Source: a virus
DNA length: 64,000 bases
Reading direction: 5' to 3' (one strand)
IMG/VR virus record: IMGVR_UViG_3300009550_000008
Below, one piece after another: positions 5,566 through 56,769 of the stretch (position 1 is the stretch's first letter; each line of letters starts with the position of its first letter). The notes under the pieces are model-generated. The model searched no databases. It saw only the letters and a program-made list of their open reading frames with translations, and had not been told where the DNA came from. The position numbers were made by a program, and so were the translations under genes.

Positions 5566-6864
5566 ATGATGAGAAATAAAGTTAATACAGGAGAGACTAT
5601 GACTGATAAAACTATTTCGGTAAATGGTAAGGATTTTACCATTACACCCGATAAAAGTGAGGTACTGGATACCCTCATAAAATCGTATCCTAATCAGACT
5701 GCCTTTACTAGGGCAGAGATCAAAGAAGCACTTGATGGATATCTTCCATATTGGATTAAATCCTCAAGGTTTCCATTTAAAGAACCTAATCCCGAGGGTG
5801 GAGTTATCTTCAACCTTGAACAGGTTGTTAATGGATACAACGGTGGTTATTCTCACGGTGGTGAGACTCCAGTGGTTGTGACCCCAACGGTTGCACCAGT
5901 GGCTGCAAAAGCAGTTCCATCTAACATGCCAGTTGCAGCTGCAACTGAGTCTGTTAATCTTCTCGATGGTGATGTCAAAATCATTCCTGAGAAGATGTCA
6001 AACTATGTGCCGTTTGGTCATTTCAAGGATGTCAAGAACATCATCAAGTCTAAGATTTTCTTCCCAGTTTTCGTAACTGGTCTTTCAGGAAATGGTAAGA
6101 CTTTGATGATCGAACAAACTTGTGCCCAATTGAAGAGAGAACTCTACAGGGTCAACATCACTATCGAAACTGATGAAGATGATTTGATGGGTGGTCATAC
6201 TCTAGTCAATGGTAACATTGTTTTCAGAGAAGGCCCAGTGGTCAAAGCAATGAGGAAAGGAGCTGTCCTTCTTCTTGATGAAGTTGACTTGGGTTCTAAC
6301 AAATTGATGTGTTTACAATCAGTTCTTGAAGGTAAAGGTTACCTAATCAAGAAAACTGGTGAGTGGGTGAGTCCTAAAGAAGGTTTCACTATCCTTGCTA
6401 CTGCAAACACAAAAGGTCAAGGTTCTGAGGATGGTAAGTTCATCGGGACTCAGATCATGAACGAAGCAATGCTTGAAAGGTTTGCAATTACGATGCAACA
6501 AGAATATCCTCCAGTGAAAACTGAGAGATCGATTCTTAAAAAAGAAATGGGATTGACTGGTGAAGTTGATGATGATTTCTGTGAGAAACTTGTTGACTGG
6601 GCTGACATAATCAGGAAGACTTTCTACGAAGGTGGGATTGATGATGTCGTGACTACTAGAAGGTTGGTTCACATTGTGAATGCTTTCAGAATGTTCAAAG
6701 ACAAAATGAAGTCTATTGAAATGTGCATTTCAAGATTCGATGAAGAGACTAGGAATTCAATCCTTGATCTCTACACCAAAGTGGACGATGGTGTCCACTT
6801 GGAAGAGTCTTCTGAGACATTCACGGAAGAGGTTAACTTTGAGAGTGATGAGAATGACTACTAA
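5566..6864 (+). CDS. cobS: CobS/MoxR-like AAA+ ATPase (alternative start 5599)
   Basis: Walker A GLSGNGKT, Walker B LLLDE, ATANTKGQG, LERF; typical of T4-like marine phages. Confidence 0.92.
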   Translation: MMRNKVNTGETMTDKTISVNGKDFTITPDKSEVLDTLIKSYPNQTAFTRAEIKEALDGYLPYWIKSSRFPFKEPNPEGGVIFNLEQVVNGYNGGYSHGGETPVVVTPTVAPVAAKAVPSNMPVAAATESVNLLDGDVKIIPEKMSNYVPFGHFKDVKNIIKSKIFFPVFVTGLSGNGKTLMIEQTCAQLKRELYRVNITIETDEDDLMGGHTLVNGNIVFREGPVVKAMRKGAVLLLDEVDLGSNKLMCLQSVLEGKGYLIKKTGEWVSPKEGFTILATANTKGQGSEDGKFIGTQIMNEAMLERFAITMQQEYPPVKTERSILKKEMGLTGEVDDDFCEKLVDWADIIRKTFYEGGIDDVVTTRRLVHIVNAFRMFKDKMKSIEMCISRFDEETRNSILDLYTKVDDGVHLEESSETFTEEVNFESDENDY

Positions 6865-7813
6865 GAAACCAGTCAATCTATTGAAAGGGGAACAATCACA
6901 GTTCCCCGTTCAGGTTGTGCCTGGCATGAGAGTTCTCAGATATGACTATGTCAGATTAGTTGACATCAATGCAACCAATCAGAACTGGGGTAGAATCAGT
7001 GGTGTTACAACAGCTGGTAGGGATGGAATCAGGAGAATGATTCAGGATGGAACATACTTACCTCAACACTTTGAACCACCAGTGATAGATCAGGATGGTA
7101 ATCTTATCGCTGGAAAGCACAGGTTCGATGCACATGACGCTGAAGGTGAAGAATACATGTGGGTTGCAGTTTGTGAATTCGATGATGATGATGCAAGAAA
7201 TACATATGCAAATGATGAGAATATGAGAAACACCTTCAAGACTATGCAGACGCCTGAAGATTTCATTTTTGCACATGCACAAATTGTTAAGAGAGGAGAC
7301 AAAGTAGCTAAAACTAAGAATGCAGTTAGTAATTACATCAAGAGAAATTATCCACAACTCCCTATGAATTATCCAAGTAGGTCAAAACTTGCCGAAGAGA
7401 TATTGATTACAGCTGGAGTTGATTTTGTACCGATTGAAATTATGACTGATGAGAAAATCATTTCTGAGTATTATGAAGAGTATGGAATCGATATTGTCGA
7501 AGACCCTTCTTGCATTTTAAAGAAATTAACTGGTGCAAAGGATTTAAAAAGGTCAGATAGATGGGCAAGACTTATGAGAGATTTGACTGATGGTATTTCA
7601 ACTGGTGTTAACTATACAGTTATCACTACATTTACTGGTGCAAACTCTGAGTCAATTCCTGAACTCAGGAAAACTTGTTTAGAGTTCTATGATGATATGA
7701 TCGAGAATGCAAAGAAGTTAATCACTGGACAAGCAAGAAAGAAATTAGGAAGTGTTAGCTTTATTTTCACTAAGCAACTTCCCGAAGATGAGGTGTTCAA
7801 TGAGATTAACTGA
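6848..7813 (+). CDS. ParB/Sulfiredoxin-like domain protein
   Basis: PPVIDQDGNLIAGKHRFDA resembles the ParB/Srx GxHR motif. Confidence 0.6.
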   Translation: MRMTTKKPVNLLKGEQSQFPVQVVPGMRVLRYDYVRLVDINATNQNWGRISGVTTAGRDGIRRMIQDGTYLPQHFEPPVIDQDGNLIAGKHRFDAHDAEGEEYMWVAVCEFDDDDARNTYANDENMRNTFKTMQTPEDFIFAHAQIVKRGDKVAKTKNAVSNYIKRNYPQLPMNYPSRSKLAEEILITAGVDFVPIEIMTDEKIISEYYEEYGIDIVEDPSCILKKLTGAKDLKRSDRWARLMRDLTDGISTGVNYTVITTFTGANSESIPELRKTCLEFYDDMIENAKKLITGQARKKLGSVSFIFTKQLPEDEVFNEIN

Positions 7814-8351
7814 GAAGAAAGAATCTAAGTGTAAGGTAACCTATAATGGTTTGGCTGGTTGCATGAACGCTGGTCTTTGGGATTTATCCATCTATAAGAG
7901 AGATATGACTAGAATATTTTATGAAGGTGTATCAGGTCTTAGAACTGGATGGGAAAGTAAAGCTGCACAGGACATGAAGATGAATGATAAGAATTTTAAA
8001 CCAACATTCGATCATGTACTTGCACCACAAACTACAGCATATTTTATTTGTGATAACTGGGATAGGTTTCAAGACTTCGAAGAATTCAGAAAGATTTATT
8101 TGATTGCATCACAGGTATGTGCTGTAACTTCATATGAAAATAATGAACTAAAGAAATGGACTGGTAAGGATTCTTCTCAGGTTCTTTGTCCTATCAATGA
8201 GAGATACGATAGATGTGGTATCAGGTTATATCATAAGAATGTTGGATGGAATGATACACATTTAGAAACACCATTTCACTATCCATTTGAAGTTCCCGAG
8301 GGTTATTTGGAATATGAAGCAAAAACCCTATTGCAAGAACAGGAGGCATAG
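7800..8351 (+). CDS. Hypothetical protein, possible HNH-like
   Basis: GAGG RBS; TFDHVLAPQ ... ENN. Confidence 0.55.
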   Translation: MRLTEKKESKCKVTYNGLAGCMNAGLWDLSIYKRDMTRIFYEGVSGLRTGWESKAAQDMKMNDKNFKPTFDHVLAPQTTAYFICDNWDRFQDFEEFRKIYLIASQVCAVTSYENNELKKWTGKDSSQVLCPINERYDRCGIRLYHKNVGWNDTHLETPFHYPFEVPEGYLEYEAKTLLQEQEA

Positions 8352-8357
8352 AGTATA

Positions 8358-8663
8358 ATGAAATCAATGTCTATAAATTACAAATATAACGAACACGAAT
8401 TGATAAAACAATTCAGTGAGTATGTTGATAAGACATATGAACAACACTATTCAAAAGATAAGTTTCAGGCAACTGAGTTTATCATGGATGGTGGTCACGG
8501 AGAGGGATTCTGTATTGGAAACATTCTTAAGTATGCCCAAAGGTATGGTAAGAAGGATGGTTACAATAGAGCAGACTTATTTAAAGTCATTCACTATGGA
8601 TTCCTTGCATTATATAATCACGACACACACATAATGGAGGCTGAAAGTGATGAAAATAAGTAA
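8358..8663 (+). CDS. Conserved phage protein (DUF3310-like)
   Basis: HY ... GFCIGNILKYAQRYGKK ... DLFKVIHY. Confidence 0.75.
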   Translation: MKSMSINYKYNEHELIKQFSEYVDKTYEQHYSKDKFQATEFIMDGGHGEGFCIGNILKYAQRYGKKDGYNRADLFKVIHYGFLALYNHDTHIMEAESDENK

Positions 8664-9315
8664 TGATACGAGAAATGTCTTAAAAAATTTCTCAACAATT
8701 AATTCGGGAATCCGAGTTAAAGCTGGAAACAAGGTTGAAACCATTTCCAATATGAAGAATATTCTTGCAGTTGCAACGGTTGATGAATCGTTCCCTCAAG
8801 ATTTTAGTATATACAACTTGCCCGAGTTCTTAGGTGCAACATCTTTGTTGTCTGACCCTGAGTTTACATTCGGTGATGCAAGTTTAACCGTTGCAGATGA
8901 TAACTCAAGTCTTGCATATTTTTATGCAAGTGAAGGTATGGTTACTGCACCTGATAAAATGATTACAATGCCTGATGCAGAAATCAACATTGAAATCAGT
9001 TCTACACTTCTTTCTGAATTACAGAAAGCTGCAAGTGTTCTAGGTGTTAATGATCTTATTCTATCATCAGATGGTAATACTATCAAACTAGAAGTGACTG
9101 ATAAGAAGAATCCAACTTCAAACACATTCTCAAGAATCGTGGGTGAAGGGAATGGTTCTACATTCACTATGAACTTCAAGATTGAGAATCTTAAAGTTCT
9201 CGATGGTAACTATAGAGTTGCTGTGTCTTCTAAAGGTATCTCTCACTTTGTGAATACAGATATCGATTTAGAATATTTTATTGCATTGGAGCCTGACAGT
9301 AATTACAATGCTTAA
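8650..9315 (+). CDS. 45: Sliding clamp (T4 gp45)
   Basis: LKNFSTIN, IYNLPEFLG, YFIALE; synteny with gp44/gp62/regA. Confidence 0.93.
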   Translation: MKISNDTRNVLKNFSTINSGIRVKAGNKVETISNMKNILAVATVDESFPQDFSIYNLPEFLGATSLLSDPEFTFGDASLTVADDNSSLAYFYASEGMVTAPDKMITMPDAEINIEISSTLLSELQKAASVLGVNDLILSSDGNTIKLEVTDKKNPTSNTFSRIVGEGNGSTFTMNFKIENLKVLDGNYRVAVSSKGISHFVNTDIDLEYFIALEPDSNYNA

Positions 9316-18779: not shown

Positions 18780-19086
18780 ACCTATAACTAATTTTCAATG
18801 GGGTTCATTTGTAACCCTTCAACTTCTTGATATGTACTCTACCTATAAAGGATTACAATACGATTGTGTATATGAAGCTAATCCTATCATGGGTGAACAA
18901 CCCTCAGTAATAAAAATGGGTATAACAAAGTTTGTTGTACTTTATCCAGCAGTAACAGCTGAACGCAATGGTCGAGAATTAAGTGAACAAAACATGAGAA
19001 ATATTAATAGACTTATGTCTATAGTTATCATGAACAATATGTCAGTCGTTAATAAAGCAAAAAGAAATTGCACAAAAAGGCCTTGA
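18490..19086 (+). CDS. Hypothetical membrane/exported protein; start uncertain (18490 overprinted on the cyclase, or 18736)
   Basis: C-terminal QLLDMYST...YEANPIMG motif; upstream in-frame signal peptide with AAGGA RBS. Confidence 0.55.
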   Translation: MKNLNLLICLLLMSVSASAQENVLSETWGQKLDLTIPSLETPSTWVLDSKDKREIMMGWTCCYRKELINYVQTEHLLKSTELMSRANPRRLQYTLVEPITNFQWGSFVTLQLLDMYSTYKGLQYDCVYEANPIMGEQPSVIKMGITKFVVLYPAVTAERNGRELSEQNMRNINRLMSIVIMNNMSVVNKAKRNCTKRP

Positions 19087-19121
19087 CATTTTCATATTTG
19101 ACCCCATATAATATATAAATA
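19082..19121 (+). promoter_or_regulatory. Composite promoter: sigma70, sigma32-like and T4 late-type
   Basis: TTGACA-18-TATAAT; CTTGAC-14-CCCCATAT; TATAAATA. Confidence 0.7.
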
Positions 19122-19184: not shown

Positions 19185-19595
19185 ATGACGCATTTAGATA
19201 TATTTGGTCAATTCAGACCGTTCGCAATTGGATTTGATAGATACTTCGAAGACCTCGATAGACTATCTAATCTTTCACAACCCAACTACCCACCTTACAA
19301 TGTTGTAAAGGTTGACGATGAAAATTTCATTGTTGAACTTGCAGTTGCTGGTTTTGGTAAAAAAGATGTTTCTGTTACTAAAGAGAAGAATCTTCTTATC
19401 ATTGAGGGTAAAGTAGAAGACGCCGAAAAAGAATTCGTTCACAAAGGTTTGGCTTCTAGAGCATTCAAGAGATCATGGACTCTTGCAGACAATGTTGAAA
19501 TTGATTCTGCAGAGTTGAAAGACGGCATCTTGTCTGTTAGTTTAGTGAAGGTTATTCCCGAAGAGGATAAACCAATCTCTATAAAAATCTCTTAA
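19185..19595 (+). CDS. Small heat shock protein Hsp20 (IbpA-like)
   Basis: NYPPYNVVK, ELAVAGF, HKGLASRAF, AELKDGIL. Confidence 0.95.
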   Translation: MTHLDIFGQFRPFAIGFDRYFEDLDRLSNLSQPNYPPYNVVKVDDENFIVELAVAGFGKKDVSVTKEKNLLIIEGKVEDAEKEFVHKGLASRAFKRSWTLADNVEIDSAELKDGILSVSLVKVIPEEDKPISIKIS

Positions 19596-19661: not shown

Positions 19662-20183
19662 ATGTTATCAGTAGGAGAACAGTTCCCAAGTTTTACACTT
19701 AAGGGAATTAATGAAAACAACGAATTTGTTGATGTAGAAGTTAATGAAGGATATACGCCTTTGAAAAAAGACTGGTCTGTAGTTTACTTTTACCCGAAAG
19801 ACTTTACATTCATATGTCCAACAGAAATTGCTGGAATGGATATCTTAGTCGATCATGCAAATGTTGTTGGTATCAGTGGTGATAACGAGTTCTGTAAATT
19901 AGCATGGAAACAAGATAATGAGTTGATAGGTTCTATCAGACATTCACTTGCAGCTGATTGTGGACTTGGACTATCACATCAACTAGGTATCGTAGATGAT
20001 GAAAATGGTGTTTGTTATCGTGCAACATTCATTTTCGACAAAGACAGAGTCATTCAACATGCATCAATCAATGCATTAGACACTGGACGAAATGCACAGG
20101 AAGTTCTAAGAACTTTACAAGGATTACAAGCTGGTGGACTCACTGGTTGTGCATGGAACGAAGGTGATGAGTTTGTTGGTTAA
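19662..20183 (+). CDS. ahpC: Peroxiredoxin (AhpC)
   Basis: FYPKDFTFICPTE, RATFIFD, GRNAQEVLR. Confidence 0.93.
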   Translation: MLSVGEQFPSFTLKGINENNEFVDVEVNEGYTPLKKDWSVVYFYPKDFTFICPTEIAGMDILVDHANVVGISGDNEFCKLAWKQDNELIGSIRHSLAADCGLGLSHQLGIVDDENGVCYRATFIFDKDRVIQHASINALDTGRNAQEVLRTLQGLQAGGLTGCAWNEGDEFVG

Positions 20184-20233
20184 TTTCAAAAACCATCTTT
20201 ACATAGGACTATGGTATATGATATCATAGTTCT

Positions 20234-21487
20234 ATGTACTTTCAATATACTTTAGACGATTTAAAACAAAATTCTTCTCAGAAGAAATTCTCATATATTA
20301 CATTCTTTGCAGGCGGTGGTGGTTCATCGTGTGGATATAAACTCGCAGGTGGTGATGTTCGATACATGAATGAGTTCCAACAGATTCATGTTGACACTTA
20401 TCTTAAGAACTTCCCTGATACTGTACACGAATGTAAAGATATCAAACAAGTGACTGGTAAAGGCATTATGGAACTTACTGGTCTCAAACCATATGAACTT
20501 GATCTACTGGATGGGTCACCACCTTGTCCACCTTTCTCTATGGCTGGAACCAAGAGAGAAGGATGGGAACAAGAGAAGGTTGCATATGGAATGAAACAAC
20601 AAAACATCGAAGACCTTACATGGGAACAAATTAGAATTGCTGGTGAACTCAAACCCAAAGTAATTGTATGTGAGAATGTAAAAGGTCTCTCTATGGATTA
20701 TGCAAGAGATCATCTTAACAAGATGGTCACAGATTTTGAAGCACTAGGTTATTCAGTTGTATGGAAGATCATGAAAGGACATGAACATGGAGTACCTCAA
20801 AAGAGAGAAAGAGTATTCATGGTTGGTGTTCGTGATGATGTTCTAGAAGCAATTGGTAGACCTTGGATGACTCTAGGAAGTATCTTCCCTGAACCATCAG
20901 ATCAATATGCAACGATCAGTCAAGCAATTGATGATCTTGAAGATGATGAAGAGAATATCGAAGATGCTAAATACTTAGAACAAGCTATGAAAGATTCATC
21001 AAAAGGTCATTGGGTTCATGGATTTGAAAAACATCCTGATGAAAAGTTTGCAAACTGTACACCATGTAAAGGTATTGATGGTGTTGCAGATAAAGAGAAT
21101 ATGTCCTATGTTTCTATTGGAGATCATATTGTAAAACCTTGGTTCCAAGAGAACATTAGATTAGGACACATACCAGCGGAAGACGAGAAACATTCTTATT
21201 ATATGTCTAGGATAGTTCCAAAACATTTACCAGCTCATTCATTGACTGAACAAGGATGTCAACCTAAATTTATGGGTGGTAATCATTTCCATTACAACGG
21301 TAAGAGAATTTATACACCAAGGGAAATGGTAAGACTTATGTCACTACCTAACGATTATCAAATGACTGGTGATTACAATGATAAGGGTGCAAGGATTGGA
21401 TTAATGGTTGCACCACTATGCTTGTATTATCTAGTTGAAGAAATCAAAAAACAGATATTAGAACCATGGAACACATTGCAAAAGTAG
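20234..21487 (+). CDS. DNA (cytosine-5) methyltransferase
   Basis: FAGGGG (I), GSPPC (IV), ENV (VI), PQKRER (VIII), RLMSLP (IX). Confidence 0.95.
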   Translation: MYFQYTLDDLKQNSSQKKFSYITFFAGGGGSSCGYKLAGGDVRYMNEFQQIHVDTYLKNFPDTVHECKDIKQVTGKGIMELTGLKPYELDLLDGSPPCPPFSMAGTKREGWEQEKVAYGMKQQNIEDLTWEQIRIAGELKPKVIVCENVKGLSMDYARDHLNKMVTDFEALGYSVVWKIMKGHEHGVPQKRERVFMVGVRDDVLEAIGRPWMTLGSIFPEPSDQYATISQAIDDLEDDEENIEDAKYLEQAMKDSSKGHWVHGFEKHPDEKFANCTPCKGIDGVADKENMSYVSIGDHIVKPWFQENIRLGHIPAEDEKHSYYMSRIVPKHLPAHSLTEQGCQPKFMGGNHFHYNGKRIYTPREMVRLMSLPNDYQMTGDYNDKGARIGLMVAPLCLYYLVEEIKKQILEPWNTLQK

Positions 21488-22464
21488 ATCACGGTTTCAA
21501 AGAAACCTACGATAAGTGGAACGGAAAGTTCCTAGACAAATCATCATACGATGAAGTTATATCATCTATAGGAGTAGATGAGAAAGTAATTAAAGTAAGT
21601 AAACCAGTTGCATCTATTACAGGTGATATGGCTCCACTTGCATATATTGTTAAAGGTGAATACACTGGAGACAATTATCAGACTATTAAAGATACATTGT
21701 TTTCAATTGATGATGTCTCAACTATGAGAGCAAATGCATCAGGCCCAATCGATCATGAGGATATGAAAAAGAAAGGATTGATCGAAGGTGTACATTACAA
21801 ACTAAGAACACCTAACTCTTACTATCCACTTAAAAAGAATGGTAAGTTCAATCGTATTGCAGAAGCAAATGCAATTCATTCTGTATTGATAGGATATAAG
21901 AGAGGAAGATTTACAGGGATGATTAATCCTAGTGGTTGGATGAAGAAGAAATCTAATCAACAAAAGTGGGAAGTATTACAGAAGATTGCACCTCTTAACG
22001 AAGGTGCATTAAAGATCGCTGCTCCCGATGTGTGGCGTCAGCAAAGATCATTTGCAGACAATTATATTGAAAGTAAGTATCACATCGGGGGCGCACCTAT
22101 CACGGCTTTATCTGCAAACAGATATTCCAGTGAAGGTACTGCAAAAATGTCAGCACATCTAGATGGAAAAGATTTAGAGTTTGGATTGACAACAATGTGT
22201 GTTTTCAGGATTGGAGACTTCAAGGGTGCATATCTTTGTTTCCCTAGATACGGTCTTGCAATAGAAGCTGATGATGGTGATGTATTGATTGCAGATTCAA
22301 ATGAATTACATGGTGTTACACCTATCGAAGGAAATGGTGTGAGACTTTCATGTGTTGCATATTGTGATGAACATGTTGCAACAATGGGTATTGGTGGTAA
22401 ATCAGAAAACCCGATTGGCCCATCTAACAAAGATAAACATGGAAGTCTAGACGAGTTTTTTTAG
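21466..22464 (+). CDS. TET/JBP-family 2OG-Fe(II) dioxygenase (putative 5mC hydroxylase)
   Basis: AHLDGKD, GAYLCFPRYG, GDVLIAD..ELHGVTPI, RLSCVAY; overlaps the C5-MTase gene. Confidence 0.85.
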   Translation: MEHIAKVDHGFKETYDKWNGKFLDKSSYDEVISSIGVDEKVIKVSKPVASITGDMAPLAYIVKGEYTGDNYQTIKDTLFSIDDVSTMRANASGPIDHEDMKKKGLIEGVHYKLRTPNSYYPLKKNGKFNRIAEANAIHSVLIGYKRGRFTGMINPSGWMKKKSNQQKWEVLQKIAPLNEGALKIAAPDVWRQQRSFADNYIESKYHIGGAPITALSANRYSSEGTAKMSAHLDGKDLEFGLTTMCVFRIGDFKGAYLCFPRYGLAIEADDGDVLIADSNELHGVTPIEGNGVRLSCVAYCDEHVATMGIGGKSENPIGPSNKDKHGSLDEFF

Positions 22465-22465
22465 A

Positions 22466-23001
22466 TGATATACTTAATCGGTGGAGTACCATGTTCAGGT
22501 AAATCAACCCTGATGAGAGGTCTTATCTCTCGTTTAGAAGAACCTAAACTTGTAGAACCTATGCCTCTATTCAAATGTCAGGAACATGGTGACATTCTAG
22601 TATGTGGTCAGTATCCCGAAGGAGAAACATTCGGTGGTACAGATAGATTATCATATGGTGCAATACCACACTTTAGAGAATTTTGTGATGGTATCAGTAT
22701 TGGATATAAACATACTATTATAGAAGGTGATCGATTCTTTAGAGCAGAAGATATAGAATGGGTACTAGACAATCATGAATCAGAAGTTTACATTCTTACA
22801 GTTGACTCAGATGAAGAGAAACGAAGACACGAAGAACGACAAGATACTCAAACAGAGAAATGGTTACAGGGTCGTAGAAGTCAGATAGATAACATTCAAA
22901 AGAATTTCAATCTTATGGGAAGGTTAAATGTGGTCAACAACAGAGACATTCAAACTTCCCTAAGAATAGCTGATGAAATCTACGGGAAAATTATTTCATG
23001 A
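22466..23001 (+). CDS. P-loop kinase of the type linked to base-modification clusters
   Basis: GGVPCSGKST, GGTDRLS, IIEGDRF. Confidence 0.8.
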
Positions 23002-23573
23002 TTGTTCTTGTTCTAGGTGCTTCATGCAGTGGTAAGTCAACGATGTTAAATAATCTTTGTGATAGATTACATACTCCAAAAGAAGATATTTTTGAACCTC
23101 TTCCATTTTGGAAATGTAGAGAATACGGAGACATATTAAATGTTGAATCATATCCAATTAAGTATCCACCAAATCAAGTGTTCAATGGAACAGAAGTAAT
23201 AACTGCAGAGAACACTATCTATGATGGTGACTCAGGAGTTTCAGAGATTCCAAAGTATCAAGACTTCTGTAGATGGGCCGATTACTCATATGTACATACA
23301 CTTATAGAATGTGATATGTACTGGAAAAGTCAAGAGATACAATGGGTATTAGATAACCATGATGCACAAGCTTTTCTTTTAACAGTTGATTCGGATGAAG
23401 AACTTAGAAGACATAATGAAAGACATAGTACACAATCTGAGGAAGAAAAACTATTGTGTAAATTGCAGATAAATAATATACAAAAGAACATTAATGAACT
23501 TAATGTGAGAGAAAACAATACCACTGAATCTTCATTAAAAATTGAAGACGAGATTTATGCCAAAGTTATTTAA
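22998..23573 (+). CDS. Diverged paralogous P-loop kinase
   Basis: GASCSGKST; shares EPxPxxKCxExGDIL, WVLDNH, LTVDSDEE with the upstream gene. Confidence 0.75.
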   Translation: MIVLVLGASCSGKSTMLNNLCDRLHTPKEDIFEPLPFWKCREYGDILNVESYPIKYPPNQVFNGTEVITAENTIYDGDSGVSEIPKYQDFCRWADYSYVHTLIECDMYWKSQEIQWVLDNHDAQAFLLTVDSDEELRRHNERHSTQSEEEKLLCKLQINNIQKNINELNVRENNTTESSLKIEDEIYAKVI

Positions 23574-23871
23574 AGAAGTTTATAGGGTTGTAGAAAACCC
23601 ACATGAAACAGACGCTGGGATAGAGATCATCAGTGGAGAATGGGAGGGTTTAGTTTACCAGTACGGTGATGTACAATTCGAAGATGGTAAACCTCATTTG
23701 AATTTTAAGAGAACTATAAGAAGGTTACCTCAATCAGGTGACACTGTAGAAGACTTAGAAAAAAACGAGGAACTAAATAACCTTATGGGCGACATACTTG
23801 TAGAGTTAATACAAGAACAAATAGAGAGGGATAAAGAAATTGAACAAAGAAGTATTGAAGGAACAGATTAA
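23557..23871 (+). CDS. Conserved hypothetical T4-like phage protein
   Basis: GLVYQYGDV...MGDILVELI. Confidence 0.7.
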   Translation: MPKLFKEVYRVVENPHETDAGIEIISGEWEGLVYQYGDVQFEDGKPHLNFKRTIRRLPQSGDTVEDLEKNEELNNLMGDILVELIQEQIERDKEIEQRSIEGTD

Positions 23872-24295: not shown

Positions 24296-24534
24296 GCAAA
24301 GATATGACAAATGATTTATTGAAAGCTGTTGTTGCACATGCAGACGGTCAGATAGAAAAACACAAAATTAATGTTCTTGTACAATGCAAGAACTCAGTTG
24401 GTGTTGCAGAGCATGGTGACCATGTAGAAACAATTCAAAAGGAAATGGAACAGATTGCACATTATGAAGACATAAAAGATGTAGTCCGTAAACATTTTGG
24501 AGAATATACAGATAGAACTACATTGACAGAATAG
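24292..24534 (+). CDS. Conserved hypothetical protein
   Basis: NSVGVAEH motif; ATGA-coupled. Confidence 0.7.
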   Translation: MSKDMTNDLLKAVVAHADGQIEKHKINVLVQCKNSVGVAEHGDHVETIQKEMEQIAHYEDIKDVVRKHFGEYTDRTTLTE

Positions 24535-24557
24535 AACATCCCTAGTATAATTATATA

Positions 24558-27074
24558 ATGGATTTCTATACAAATGTCTGTCGAACCCGTGACAAAATTC
24601 TAGTCAAAGGATATCAAGGTAAGAAACAAGTCAAGATGGCTGTTTCTTATCGTCCTAATCACTACATCCCCTCGAAGAAAGGGGACACTGCATTCAAGTC
24701 ATTAGATGGTAGATCACTGGAAGCAGTGAATCTAAACTCTATGGGTGGTGCAAGAAAGTTTCGAGAGAGATACTCAGGTGTCGAAGGATTCGAAATCCAT
24801 GGATACGACAAGTATATCTACACTTATATCGCAGAGAAGTTCAAAGGTGATATAGAATACAATCCTAAACTAATCAAAGTTGCATCCCTCGATATCGAGT
24901 GTGAGTGTGAAGATGGATTCCCTGAACCAATGATTGCTGGAGAGAAGGTTAATGCAATCTCCATCAAACCATTTGGAAAAGAAACTGTAGTATTCGGTAT
25001 CGGCCCATGGAATCATGATCGTACTGATGTGATCTATCACGAATGTACAAACGAAGCAAACCTATTGATGAAGTTCATCAAGTATTGGAGAACTGAATCA
25101 TTCGATATCATTACAGGATGGAATGTGAACTCATTCGATATCACATATCTTTGTAATCGTATCGATAGAATCCTAGGTGAAGATGAACATAAAAAGCTAT
25201 CACCATGGAATCAATCAGATGTTCGTGAGTTTACTGCTCATGGATATCAGAAACAACAGGTTTACAATCTCTATGGTGTGAATGTTCTTGACTATCTAGA
25301 ACTATATCGTAAACATACATTTGTAAATCAAGAATCCTACAGACTAGATCACATTGCAAATGTCGAACTTGGTAAAAGTAAATTAGATTATTCAGAGTAT
25401 GGAAATCTGCATACACTTTACAAACAAGACTATCCAAAGTTTCTTGAGTATAATGTACAGGATGCTGTACTGGTCGAAGAACTAGAAGAGAAACTAGGAT
25501 TGATCGAACTCGTTCAAGCGATGAGTTACAATGCAAAGTGTAATTACAACGATACCTTTGGAATGGTGAAGTATTGGGAAACCATTATCTACAACTTCCT
25601 TAAAGAACAAAACATTCAAACACCACCACAAAGACTTAGGACTGGTAATGACAAGATGAAACCTATCATAGGTGCCTATGTCAAAGACCCGTTAGTCGGT
25701 GGTCATGATTGGGTGGTGTCGTTTGACTTGAACTCACTGTATCCACATATCATCATGCAGTACAATATCAGTCCTGAGAAGATGGTAAAAGAATACAAAG
25801 AGGATGTATCAATTGATCGATTACTCAACAAAGAATGTAATCTATCATATCTAAAACAACAGAACAACACAGTTTGTCCCAACGGTGCAAAATTCAAAAG
25901 AGATCGTCAAGGTTTCCTACCTGAACTCATGGAGAAATTCTATGATGAAAGGAAGCAATGGAAGAGAAAGATGATCGAATATCAGATTGAACGAGAATCT
26001 TGTAAAGATCGTAAACGACTTAGAGAACTCGATACTCTCATCAAGAGAGCAAACAACAATCAGATGGTTCGTAAGATTGCACTGAACTCAGCTTACGGTG
26101 CATTGGCAAATCAGTATTTTGCATTCTTTTCTATTGACCTTGCAGAGGCAATCACTACATCAGGTCAGTTGATTATCAAATGGTCTGAGAGAACTATCAA
26201 TGACTTCATGAACAAAACATTAGGTACTGAGGATGAAGACTTTGTAATTGCAATGGATACTGATTCAGTCTATATCACTATGGACAAACTGGTTCAGAAG
26301 GTTTTACCCGAAGAGACAGACAAGGGTAAGATCATCGACTTCTTAAACAAATCAGAAGGTATGTTTGAGAAGGTACTTGCAGATGGTTTCGATGAACTAT
26401 CTGAGTACACAAATGCCTTTCAAAACAAGATGGAAATGGGGAGAGAGGTGATCGCTGATCGTGGTATTTGGACTGCAAAGAAAAGATACATTCTAAATGT
26501 CCACGACAACGAGGGAGTTAGACTTGCAGAACCCAAACTGAAAATGATGGGTATCGAAACTGCAAAGTCGTCAACACCACAATGGGTTAGAACTAAACTC
26601 ACAGAAGCTTTTAAGGTTGTGATGAATGGTACTGAACAAGACCTATGGGAATTCGTAGAGACCTCACGAAAGGAATTTCGTAATCTACCACCTGAACAGG
26701 TTGCATTCCCGAGAGGATGCAAAGGTTTAGTCCAATATGCATGTCCAACACATATTTACTCCAAAGGAACTCCGATTCATGTTCGAGGTTCGCTGTTGTA
26801 CAATCATCATCTTAAAAAGAAGAACATCGACAGACGATATGAAATGATTAAGAACGGAGAAAAGATTGCATTCAGTTATCTAACCGTTCCAAATCCAATC
26901 AACGAGAATGTCATTTCATTCATGAATGTTCTACCGAGAGAGTTAGACCTACACCGTTTTATTGATTATGATATGCAATTCAACAAAGCTTTTGTTGACC
27001 CTCTAAAAGTCGTAATCAGTTTAATCGGGTGGAATGTTGAACCAGTTGCAAGTCTAGACTCCTTTTTTGGATAA
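24558..27074 (+). CDS. 43: Family B DNA polymerase (T4 gp43)
   Basis: DIECE exonuclease, SFDLNSLYP, KIALNSAYG, MDTDS, KKRY. Confidence 0.98.
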   Translation: MDFYTNVCRTRDKILVKGYQGKKQVKMAVSYRPNHYIPSKKGDTAFKSLDGRSLEAVNLNSMGGARKFRERYSGVEGFEIHGYDKYIYTYIAEKFKGDIEYNPKLIKVASLDIECECEDGFPEPMIAGEKVNAISIKPFGKETVVFGIGPWNHDRTDVIYHECTNEANLLMKFIKYWRTESFDIITGWNVNSFDITYLCNRIDRILGEDEHKKLSPWNQSDVREFTAHGYQKQQVYNLYGVNVLDYLELYRKHTFVNQESYRLDHIANVELGKSKLDYSEYGNLHTLYKQDYPKFLEYNVQDAVLVEELEEKLGLIELVQAMSYNAKCNYNDTFGMVKYWETIIYNFLKEQNIQTPPQRLRTGNDKMKPIIGAYVKDPLVGGHDWVVSFDLNSLYPHIIMQYNISPEKMVKEYKEDVSIDRLLNKECNLSYLKQQNNTVCPNGAKFKRDRQGFLPELMEKFYDERKQWKRKMIEYQIERESCKDRKRLRELDTLIKRANNNQMVRKIALNSAYGALANQYFAFFSIDLAEAITTSGQLIIKWSERTINDFMNKTLGTEDEDFVIAMDTDSVYITMDKLVQKVLPEETDKGKIIDFLNKSEGMFEKVLADGFDELSEYTNAFQNKMEMGREVIADRGIWTAKKRYILNVHDNEGVRLAEPKLKMMGIETAKSSTPQWVRTKLTEAFKVVMNGTEQDLWEFVETSRKEFRNLPPEQVAFPRGCKGLVQYACPTHIYSKGTPIHVRGSLLYNHHLKKKNIDRRYEMIKNGEKIAFSYLTVPNPINENVISFMNVLPRELDLHRFIDYDMQFNKAFVDPLKVVISLIGWNVEPVASLDSFFG

Positions 27075-56074: not shown

Positions 56075-56150
56075 GGGGCGGTAGCTCAGTAGGGAGAGCG
56101 ACTGGTTTGCATCCAGTAGGTCGTAGGTTCGATTCCTATTCGCTCCACCA
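56075..56150 (+). tRNA. tRNA-Ala (anticodon TGC)
   Basis: Acceptor GGGGCGG/TCGCTCC with G3:U70, ACTGG-TT TGC AT-CCAGT, GGTTCGATTCC, encoded CCA. Confidence 0.96.
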
Positions 56151-56163
56151 TCATCGAGAACAT

Positions 56164-56769
56164 ATGGAAAAGAGAACAGTTAAACAGGAAGATACAAGAG
56201 AAGTACATGATCTAGGAGAACATATTATCTTATTTGATAATTACTTCTCAAATGAATTTTGTGAGGACTGTATTACGATCTTTGAAGAAGCAGAAGCATC
56301 AGGATTAGTAGTAGGTAGACAGAATAGTGGTCTATCGATCAAAGATCAAGCTCTTATTCATACTCAAATACCAGCGAGTTCATTACCACTTGCAAAACAT
56401 CTAGTCGATATAATCAACTACGATATAATACCTGAGTTTCTCAAGAAATATGATATTGCATCACAATATGATTGCATCAATGTAGGTGGTGCAAAGATAC
56501 AAAAGACATTACCAACAGAGGGATATCATGTCTGGCATATGGAACATTCCAATCAGATGGATAGTTATAGATCAATATGTGCATGGGCATTGTTTTTAAA
56601 TGATGTAGAAGAAGGTGGTGAACTAGAATTCCTATATCAATCTAAGAGAATAAAACCAAAGAAAGGAGATTTTGTATTGTGGCCTGCTGGATATACCCAT
56701 CACCATAGAGGTAATCCACCACTAAAAGGAGTCAAATACATATACACAGGATGGCTAGATACTTTATAA
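56164..56769 (+). CDS. 2OG-Fe(II) oxygenase
   Basis: GYHVWHME, LNDVEEGGE, WPAGYTHHHRGNPP..KY. Confidence 0.9.
   Translation: MEKRTVKQEDTREVHDLGEHIILFDNYFSNEFCEDCITIFEEAEASGLVVGRQNSGLSIKDQALIHTQIPASSLPLAKHLVDIINYDIIPEFLKKYDIASQYDCINVGGAKIQKTLPTEGYHVWHMEHSNQMDSYRSICAWALFLNDVEEGGELEFLYQSKRIKPKKGDFVLWPAGYTHHHRGNPPLKGVKYIYTGWLDTL

Follow-up and report, generated by a model that had tools for sequence, protein, structure and literature searches.

The 64,000-nucleotide stretch of viral DNA in IMG/VR record IMGVR_UViG_3300009550_000008 (the window, 64 kb out of a genome of ~140 kb) is plus-strand-coded DNA of a marine T4-like myophage of the pelagimyophage/Melnitz-like type, and the isolate closest to it is Methylophilales phage Melnitz (Kyanoviridae), with protein identities of 45-74%. 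At positions 20234-23573 on the plus strand, four coupled open reading frames (ORFs) encode a C5 cytosine DNA methyltransferase (MT), a TET/JBP-type dioxygenase (TET) and two paralogous P-loop kinases (K1 and K2). We favor the reading, with somewhat better than even confidence, that these genes form a post-replicative cytosine hypermodification cassette in which MT and TET generate 5-hydroxymethylcytosine (5hmC) in DNA and K1 phosphorylates it. In the first step, MT would methylate cytosine in the phage DNA, probably at GpC. TET would then oxidize 5-methylcytosine (5mC) to 5hmC, possibly while tethered to the sliding clamp. In the third step, K1 would move one phosphate of ATP to the hydroxymethyl group, yielding 5-phosphomethylcytosine in DNA, and the phosphate ester could be either the end product or the leaving group for an unrecognized transferase. 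The first two steps have been demonstrated experimentally in the literature for homologous contigs, from which they may be carried over to the window by analogy, and the third is the one that we infer. K2 arose from K1 by a recent tandem duplication; its acceptor and lid region is changed, and its surface is very acidic.

The coupling of the four genes is close. MT (20234-21487, plus strand, 417 amino acids (aa)) overlaps TET (21466-22464, plus strand, 332 aa) by 22 nucleotides (nt), the ATG of K1 (22465-23001, plus strand, 178 aa) abuts the TET stop codon, and K1 and K2 (22998-23573, plus strand, 191 aa) share an ATGA overlap. An earlier note made from the letters of this DNA alone, referred to here as the original prediction, had described four overlapping or abutting genes that included a complete C5 methyltransferase and a TET/JBP dioxygenase with an HxD...H...RxS signature; the ORFs, their coupling and both enzyme assignments were borne out, and the gene order was found to recur in related loci. 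MT matches PF00145 with 173.7 bits against a cut-off of 22 (E 9e-51) and TIGR00675 at E 2e-43, and is 54% identical to the 'modification methylase' of Melnitz. Its motifs I (FFAGGGG), IV (PPCPPFS, with the catalytic Cys98), VI (ENV), VIII (QKRER) and X were all located, so that both the profile score and the full motif set identify it as a C5 cytosine DNA methyltransferase. TET scores 49.5 bits against PF12851, above the gathering cut-off of 34.9, and has the HxD...H iron ligands and the arginine that binds 2-oxoglutarate (2OG) of a TET/JBP-type Fe(II)/2OG 5-methylpyrimidine dioxygenase (H231-L-D233, H282 and R293-L-S). The C-terminus of TET, GSLDEFF (22444-22461), resembles the tail of the DNA polymerase, ASLDSFFG (~27050-27071), a clamp-binding peptide of the T4 gp43 type. 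The tail GSLD[SEG]F[FL] is kept in nearly all TET homologues fetched. This clamp-peptide-like C-terminus suggests that oxidation of 5mC may be tethered to the sliding clamp.

For the kinases, the original prediction had called for profile and structure searches against families linked to base modification, and these searches place K1 in such a lineage. The best Pfam family of K1 is PF18751 (Ploopntkinase3), to which its homologues P0016, P0128, P0144 and P0141 score 30-32 bits and the others 18-27, and K1 also matches phrog_800 at E 1e-11. An hhalign comparison of the K1/K2 profile with the verified 5-hydroxymethyldeoxyuridine (5-hmdU) DNA kinase M6 gp54 gave a probability of 94% (E 1e-7), with GGTDRLS of K1 aligned to AGLDRIK. 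Neither K1 nor K2 matched PF18748 (HMUDK_HMUD1) at E ≤0.1, M6 gp54 scoring 65 bits as the control, and the tie of K1 to the 5-hmdU DNA kinase family would be one of remote homology only. The AlphaFold2 model of K1 has a mean pLDDT of 93, and the 5-hmdU DNA kinases of PhiW-14 (TM 0.66) and SP10 (TM 0.63) were among its Foldseek matches in the viral predicted structures of BFVD. By profile and predicted fold, the verified 5-hmdU DNA kinases and K1 are sisters. An alignment of 36 K1 sequences has 24 invariant columns, including K13, D60, E87-G88-D89-R90, R121, R125 and R137. Beyond the marine group, the closest homologue in an isolate is Cr30 gp114, which is clustered with Tet_JBP, ADDT (PF18724) and a TAGT-like gene. 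It should be mentioned that M6 gp54 (L057:11686-12249), Cr30 gp114 (L002:6989-7534) and phrog_800 are all labelled 'terminase small subunit' in RefSeq/PHROG; on verified or probable DNA base kinases, this label is a propagated misannotation. A metagenomic protein of 448 aa, P0139, has an N-terminal PF18751-type kinase domain fused to a C-terminal region of ~290 aa and could be a kinase-transferase fusion.

The genomic setting of K1 carries most of the argument for its substrate. Loci were fetched from IMG/VR with K1 as query (54) and with TET as query (63), about 50 of them non-redundant, and the order CHASE2 cyclase, hsp20, AhpC (in some), MT, TET, an optional slot for further genes, K1, K2 (in some), a small ORF, lysozyme and DNA polymerase was kept. 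Because the same order recurs across these ~50 loci, the arrangement of the cassette is not due to chance. Every locus contains MT together with an overlapping TET, and in 47/47 of the K1-fetched loci with enough upstream sequence K1 follows this pair directly or past one or two slot genes. A kinase unlinked from TET, which would have spoken against the original prediction, was thus not seen among them. The loci L093-L097 have no K1. Its site is occupied instead by TAGT (PF20691, the TET-associated glycosyltransferase), a T4-type DNA alpha-glucosyltransferase (PF11440), an epimerase and a cytidylyltransferase. Since glycosyltransferases replace K1 at the same site, K1 would occupy the tailoring step that acts on 5hmC. 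Judged by gene content, the kinase and the glycosyltransferases are alternative tailoring modules behind one MT-TET core, and in our view no genomic observation argues more strongly for 5hmC in DNA as the substrate of K1 than this swap, which the original prediction had missed and which is a new element here. Together, the linkage to TET and the displacement by glycosyltransferases indicate that K1 is probably a 5hmC DNA kinase.

Two further observations belong to the same site. A spermidine-synthase-like gene is also found there in the L093-L097 group; in L096 (7421-8212, PF01564) it follows TAGT and the epimerase, an arrangement hinting that the sugar or the base may be decorated with a polyamine or aminopropyl group. 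A third version of the locus is seen in L100 (5962-9284), where three ORFs of 396, 425 and 218 aa without a Pfam match follow TET, and neither K1 nor a recognizable glycosyltransferase is found.

Against solved structures, the matches of K1 are generic nucleoside/nucleotide kinases alone (TM ~0.5-0.6), the closest being nicotinamide riboside kinase, guanylate kinase and hCINAP, and the PHROG search gave weak guanylate and thymidylate kinase matches. Such similarities would be expected if K1 and K2 were ordinary nucleotide or nucleoside kinases for deoxynucleoside triphosphate supply that merely adjoin MT and TET. We consider this very unlikely in view of the strict and translationally coupled linkage to TET, the replacement of K1 by glycosyltransferases, and the fact that K1 is closest to PF18751 and not to the nucleoside monophosphate kinase families. 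In addition, no ThyA-family hydroxymethylase was found in the complete Melnitz genome and three large relatives, and therefore no free hydroxymethylated deoxynucleotide would be available to a nucleotide kinase.

Several points weigh against phosphorylation of 5hmC by K1. The PF18751 match (21.9 bits, E 1.4e-4) lies under the 27-bit gathering cut-off, and K1 is acidic, with a net charge of -8 vs +2.7 for M6 gp54. Placement of the window TET in clade A of Burke et al. (PMC8256090) would follow from its gene context and not from sequence clustering. No demonstrated 5hmC DNA kinase or biochemical phosphorylation of 5hmC was found in the literature searched, and a transferase could lie outside the window. 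According to a 2026 report in PNAS (PMC13229309), thymine dioxygenases are accompanied by P-loop kinases and ParB-like partners, and certain 5mYOX enzymes oxidize T as well as 5mC. From this association and the dual oxidation, it follows that the kinase substrate could be 5-hydroxymethyluracil (5hmU).

Thymine as the substrate would mean that the dioxygenase also or mainly makes 5hmU, that K1 is a 5-hmdU DNA kinase, and that MT serves a separate anti-restriction methylation. Besides the company that P-loop kinases and ParB-like proteins keep with thymine dioxygenases, and the activity of 5mYOX176 and TET89 on both T and 5mC, the Cr30 locus is in line with this proposal: its kinase lies beside Tet_JBP and ADDT, and the stretch fetched on the downstream side of the Cr30 Tet_JBP holds no C5 methyltransferase. 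However, the overlapping MT-TET pair present in every locus differs from the thymine dioxygenase clusters, which have no adjacent C5 methyltransferase (PMC13229309); the clade A/B enzymes described from such a context make 5hmC (PMC8256090); and both glycosyltransferases that replace K1, of the TET-associated and the T4 AGT types, stand at the very site of the kinase. We therefore judge a thymine substrate to be unlikely, and cytosine remains the preferred target of the cassette.

If 5-phosphomethylcytosine is formed, it may be only an activated intermediate. A transferase not recognized as such would then displace the phosphate, and the cytosine would become further hypermodified, in analogy to the amino acid:DNA transferases (AADTs) that act on 5-phosphomethyldeoxyuridine. 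We hold this as a tentative alternative, well short of the preferred one. The base phosphate is a leaving group in every characterized case (PMC8989533), and further modification by neighboring hypothetical proteins was expected by the authors of PMC8256090, as described there. The transferase might be encoded beyond the window, or it might be K2 itself, the ParB/Srx-like protein discussed below or the partner of that protein. However, a thymidine-type pathway pairs the kinase with an AADT of PF18724, and searches for this family found no member in the complete Melnitz genome or in the contigs of five large relatives (52-81% complete), with Cr30 and M6 positive as controls. The 64 kb window was also searched by tblastn with TAGT, AGT and two ADDT proteins; this search, which is of low sensitivity and covers part of the genome, returned nothing, in agreement with the statement in the original prediction that the cassette holds no glycosyltransferase or aGPT-PPlase-like gene. 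Moreover, TET and K1 adjoin each other with neither a slot gene nor K2 in 12 non-redundant loci. Because no recognizable transferase is present, phosphorylated 5hmC is the most economical reading. Of the earlier proposal that it is the product or an intermediate, the kinase lineage and the linkage to TET now have support, and the phosphorylation step itself is one that K1 would be expected to perform.

The slot between TET and K1 bears on the same question. It is empty in the window, and most relatives have one or two extra genes there, drawn from at least five unrelated families without a Pfam match, so that it is a hotspot in which a transferase might be sought. Twenty non-redundant loci carry the main slot family (328-414 aa), whose subfamilies are 22-30% identical to one another. 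Although this family has no Pfam match, Foldseek with a predicted model (pLDDT 63) retrieved MxParB at E 2.6e-5 and also C. crescentus ParB, Noc, KorB and sulfiredoxin, and the family in the relatives is predicted to be a ParB/Srx-fold partner gene beside the dioxygenase. ParB-like partners activate some phage dioxygenases (PMC13229309), and the predicted fold would accordingly assign this family to dioxygenase activation and not to group transfer. The 427-aa slot protein of Melnitz and the 495/510-aa and 189-aa slot families show no significant profile similarity to the ParB-like family and have no Pfam match. For a 348-aa slot family, a weak hhalign match to the ParB-like family was obtained (E 0.028), and a profile search of PDB sequences gave nothing useful.

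A ParB/Srx-like candidate is present in the window ~13 kb upstream of the cassette, a partner gene that the original prediction had missed. It lies at 6851-7813 on the plus strand (the longest ORF starts at 6716, and the true start is probably near 6851), has the motif DGxLxAGKHRxxAH, and shares 61% identity with the L050 slot gene; in the ESM Atlas it comes closest to the clusters ParB_N and 'ParB/Sulfiredoxin', which is a lead only. It is followed by a partner ORF (7752-8351, plus strand, 199 aa) with no Pfam match, which is 31% identical (E 2e-16) to the ORF before the ParB-like gene in the slot of L053. In L050, L052 and L053, homologues of the candidate and of its partner ORF are part of the TET-kinase operon. 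In the window, a MoxR/CbbQ-type AAA ATPase (5566-6864) precedes the pair, and DUF3310 and the gp45 clamp (8647-9315) come after it. The pair was found at 91% identity in G007, a close relative with an empty slot, and was absent from the complete Melnitz genome and from the contigs of eight relatives, including the five searched ones that have another slot gene (ParB-like in four). It is plausible from this distribution that the 6851-8351 pair is a remote accessory of the TET module.

K2 is 43% identical to K1 (E 5e-56), and both have a Walker A motif. The contrast that the original prediction had drawn between the kinase motifs, GGTDRLS/EGDR in K1 and NGTEVIT/ECDM in K2, was confirmed. K2 retains, besides Walker A, a Walker B-like E104/D106 and the lid arginines R137/R142. 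It is without 6/24 of the K1-invariant residues, namely the equivalents of D60 (replaced by E), G88, R90, W133, L134 and R137, and a 14-aa acidic insert (23205-23246) adjoins its acceptor motif. Its net charge is -15 vs a median of -2.6 for the K1 family, and it has no match to PF18751. K2 is limited to the closest relatives of the window (L003-L006 and L046); only 7 clusters of it were recovered from 5.8 billion proteins, and a search of 1.84 billion cluster representatives gave 21 matches, mostly of the K1 type. In the tree, K2 is monophyletic (100/100) and nested in the K1 subclade of the window, with a stem of 0.82 changes per site, and it is therefore a recent tandem duplicate.

The pairwise ratio of nonsynonymous to synonymous substitution rates (dN/dS) of K2 is 0.7-1.05, compared to 0.02-0.27 in most neighboring genes, although the counts are small; for lysozyme, three substitutions give a value of 0.50. 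The K2 allele of L006 (5868-6398) is 51% identical to that of the window while the flanking genes are 94-100% identical, and the dS of K2 is well above that of its immediate neighbors K1 and o109. This divergence, together with the high dS, suggests allele replacement by recombination at the K2 position. The ORF is intact across 51-95% identity, and because it stays open at 51% identity, K2 is probably functional, though probably not as a copy of K1. Most likely it no longer does the job of K1, and its function is either that of a modified kinase or non-catalytic.

A possible role, to which we give modest weight, is that of a second active DNA base kinase with another sequence context or substrate, or, in a variant, one that adds a second phosphate. 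Twin paralogous DNA base kinases do have a precedent: gp67 and gp243 of phage ViI are both verified 5-hmdU DNA kinases (PMC8989533). The retained Walker motifs and two lid arginines, and the persistence of an intact ORF, would be compatible with such an activity. The lost residues are hard to reconcile with it, since they include the D of the G-x-D-R motif, which is common to M6 gp54, and the GRRS arginine; the strongly negative charge and the dN/dS of 0.7-1.05 point the same way. As to the second phosphate, the verified relatives gave a single phosphate only, even with excess ATP (PMC8989533). The suggestions of the original prediction that K2 may add a second phosphate or serve as a regulatory subunit are, if anything, weakened by its fast evolution, its high acidity and its restriction to one lineage. 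A more speculative combination, which we think rather improbable, is that 5-phosphomethylcytosine is the final virion-DNA modification in these abundant, AADT-free marine myophages and that K2 is a fast-evolving pseudo-kinase recruited elsewhere, for counter-defence or for control of K1. Should 5-phosphomethylcytosine prove to be the virion end product, it would be the first case of a natural phosphate-bearing DNA base.

Upstream of the cassette are genes for hsp20 (19185-19595, plus strand; PF00011, E 1.5e-17) and an AhpC-type peroxiredoxin (19662-20183, plus strand; PF00578, E 7e-22). A sigma-70-like promoter candidate is found just 5' of MT (20198-20227, plus strand; TTTACA, an 18-nt spacer and TG-TATCAT, with 10/12 matches). 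By consensus match alone, 12/12 sites are located at 19083-19112 before hsp20 and at 24523-24551 before the DNA polymerase, so that two such sigma-70 promoters flank the block from hsp20 to o80, which suggests that the cassette may be expressed early by the host polymerase. A plus-strand terminator scan from MT to K2 found none except one weak site inside MT. The small ORF phrog_3998 (23557-23871, plus strand), whose ATG at 23557 overlaps the end of K2, follows K1 or K2 in nearly all loci and has no match among isolate phages. It was set aside as a pathway member because it is also found 3' of the glycosyltransferase versions, and it is probably not specific to the kinase chemistry. The observed/expected ratio in the window is 0.71 for GpC vs 0.57 for CpG, and the depletion of GpC is not informative. 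A further 2OG-Fe(II) oxygenase gene matches PF13640 at 1440-2207, and a homologue of the Melnitz '2OG-Fe oxygenase' lies at ~56563-56757, within 56107-56769 of the window.

TET-associated kinases were reportedly first predicted by Iyer et al. in 2013. Burke et al. (2021, PMC8256090) described C5 methyltransferase/TET contigs screened from GOV2 and IMG/VR, with a heat-shock protein (HSP), a redoxin and a P-loop kinase or glycosyltransferase co-occurring in the clade I/A contigs and ParB and lysozyme nearby. As reported in that work, the clade I/A pairs, among them pair 88 from a kinase-bearing contig, make Gp5mC and then 5hmC in E. coli, and phosphorylation of the TET-made 5hmC by the kinase was put forward as a proposal. 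The description of the cassette as a candidate new pathway in the original prediction is not supported in that form, in light of the gene set and the phosphorylation proposal described by Burke et al. The cassette is a real and well-conserved one of an already described cluster type, for which the hypothesis is already published. What is new is K2, which is lineage-specific, together with the exchange of a kinase for glycosyltransferases at one site, the lack of any AADT and the variability of the slot for ParB-like genes.

With the concept in print, the value of the present analysis is a sharper test and not a new idea. It outlines a locus plan in which a ParB-like gene may follow the MT-TET core before an exchangeable tailoring module that consists of a kinase or of glycosyltransferases. 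A cultured relative exists in Melnitz, which grows on OM43. If K1 does act on 5hmC in DNA, base-phosphorylation chemistry would extend from thymine derivatives to cytosine. The activity could give a new natural DNA modification in ocean-widespread phages, Melnitz-like phages having been detected in 79% of GOV2 viromes (PMC9004378), and K1 would be a candidate tool to tag 5hmC selectively.

We have compared the cassette to four known systems. With the clade I/A clusters that Burke et al. recovered from marine metaviromes (contigs 49, 76 and 88), likened here by their description, the window shares HSP20, the AhpC redoxin, the C5 methyltransferase, TET, the P-loop kinase and lysozyme, as well as the proposed chemistry from 5mC to 5hmC to phosphorylated 5hmC; ParB is present in some of them. 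The window differs in having a second, diverged kinase, which does not appear in the main text of that paper, and in having no gene between TET and K1. The verified 5-HMUDK enzymes (M6 gp54, ViI gp67/gp243, SP10 gp186 and PhiW-14 gp37; PF18748) are likewise P-loop kinases of ~180 aa that act on a 5-hydroxymethylpyrimidine in DNA, share the fold and the G-x-D-R and E-G motifs with K1, and in ViI also come as two paralogues. In contrast, K1 is closest to the sister family PF18751, its presumed substrate is TET-made 5hmC rather than 5hmU incorporated at replication, and no amino acid:DNA transferase accompanies it. In the ParB-dependent 5-methylpyrimidine dioxygenase systems (PMC13229309), as in relatives of the window, a ParB/Srx-fold gene immediately follows the dioxygenase and precedes a P-loop kinase, and the closest structures of both sets of proteins are the M. 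xanthus and C. crescentus ParBs. Those systems oxidize thymine and have no adjacent C5 methyltransferase, whereas here the C5 methyltransferase overlaps the dioxygenase, and the ParB-like gene of the window is the candidate 13 kb upstream and not a member of the cassette. Finally, the phage MT/TET pathways with glycosyltransferases (TAGT, AGT-like), which the sister phages L093-L097 carry, have an identical MT-TET core and site. The tailoring enzyme there is a glycosyltransferase, and in the window it would be a kinase.

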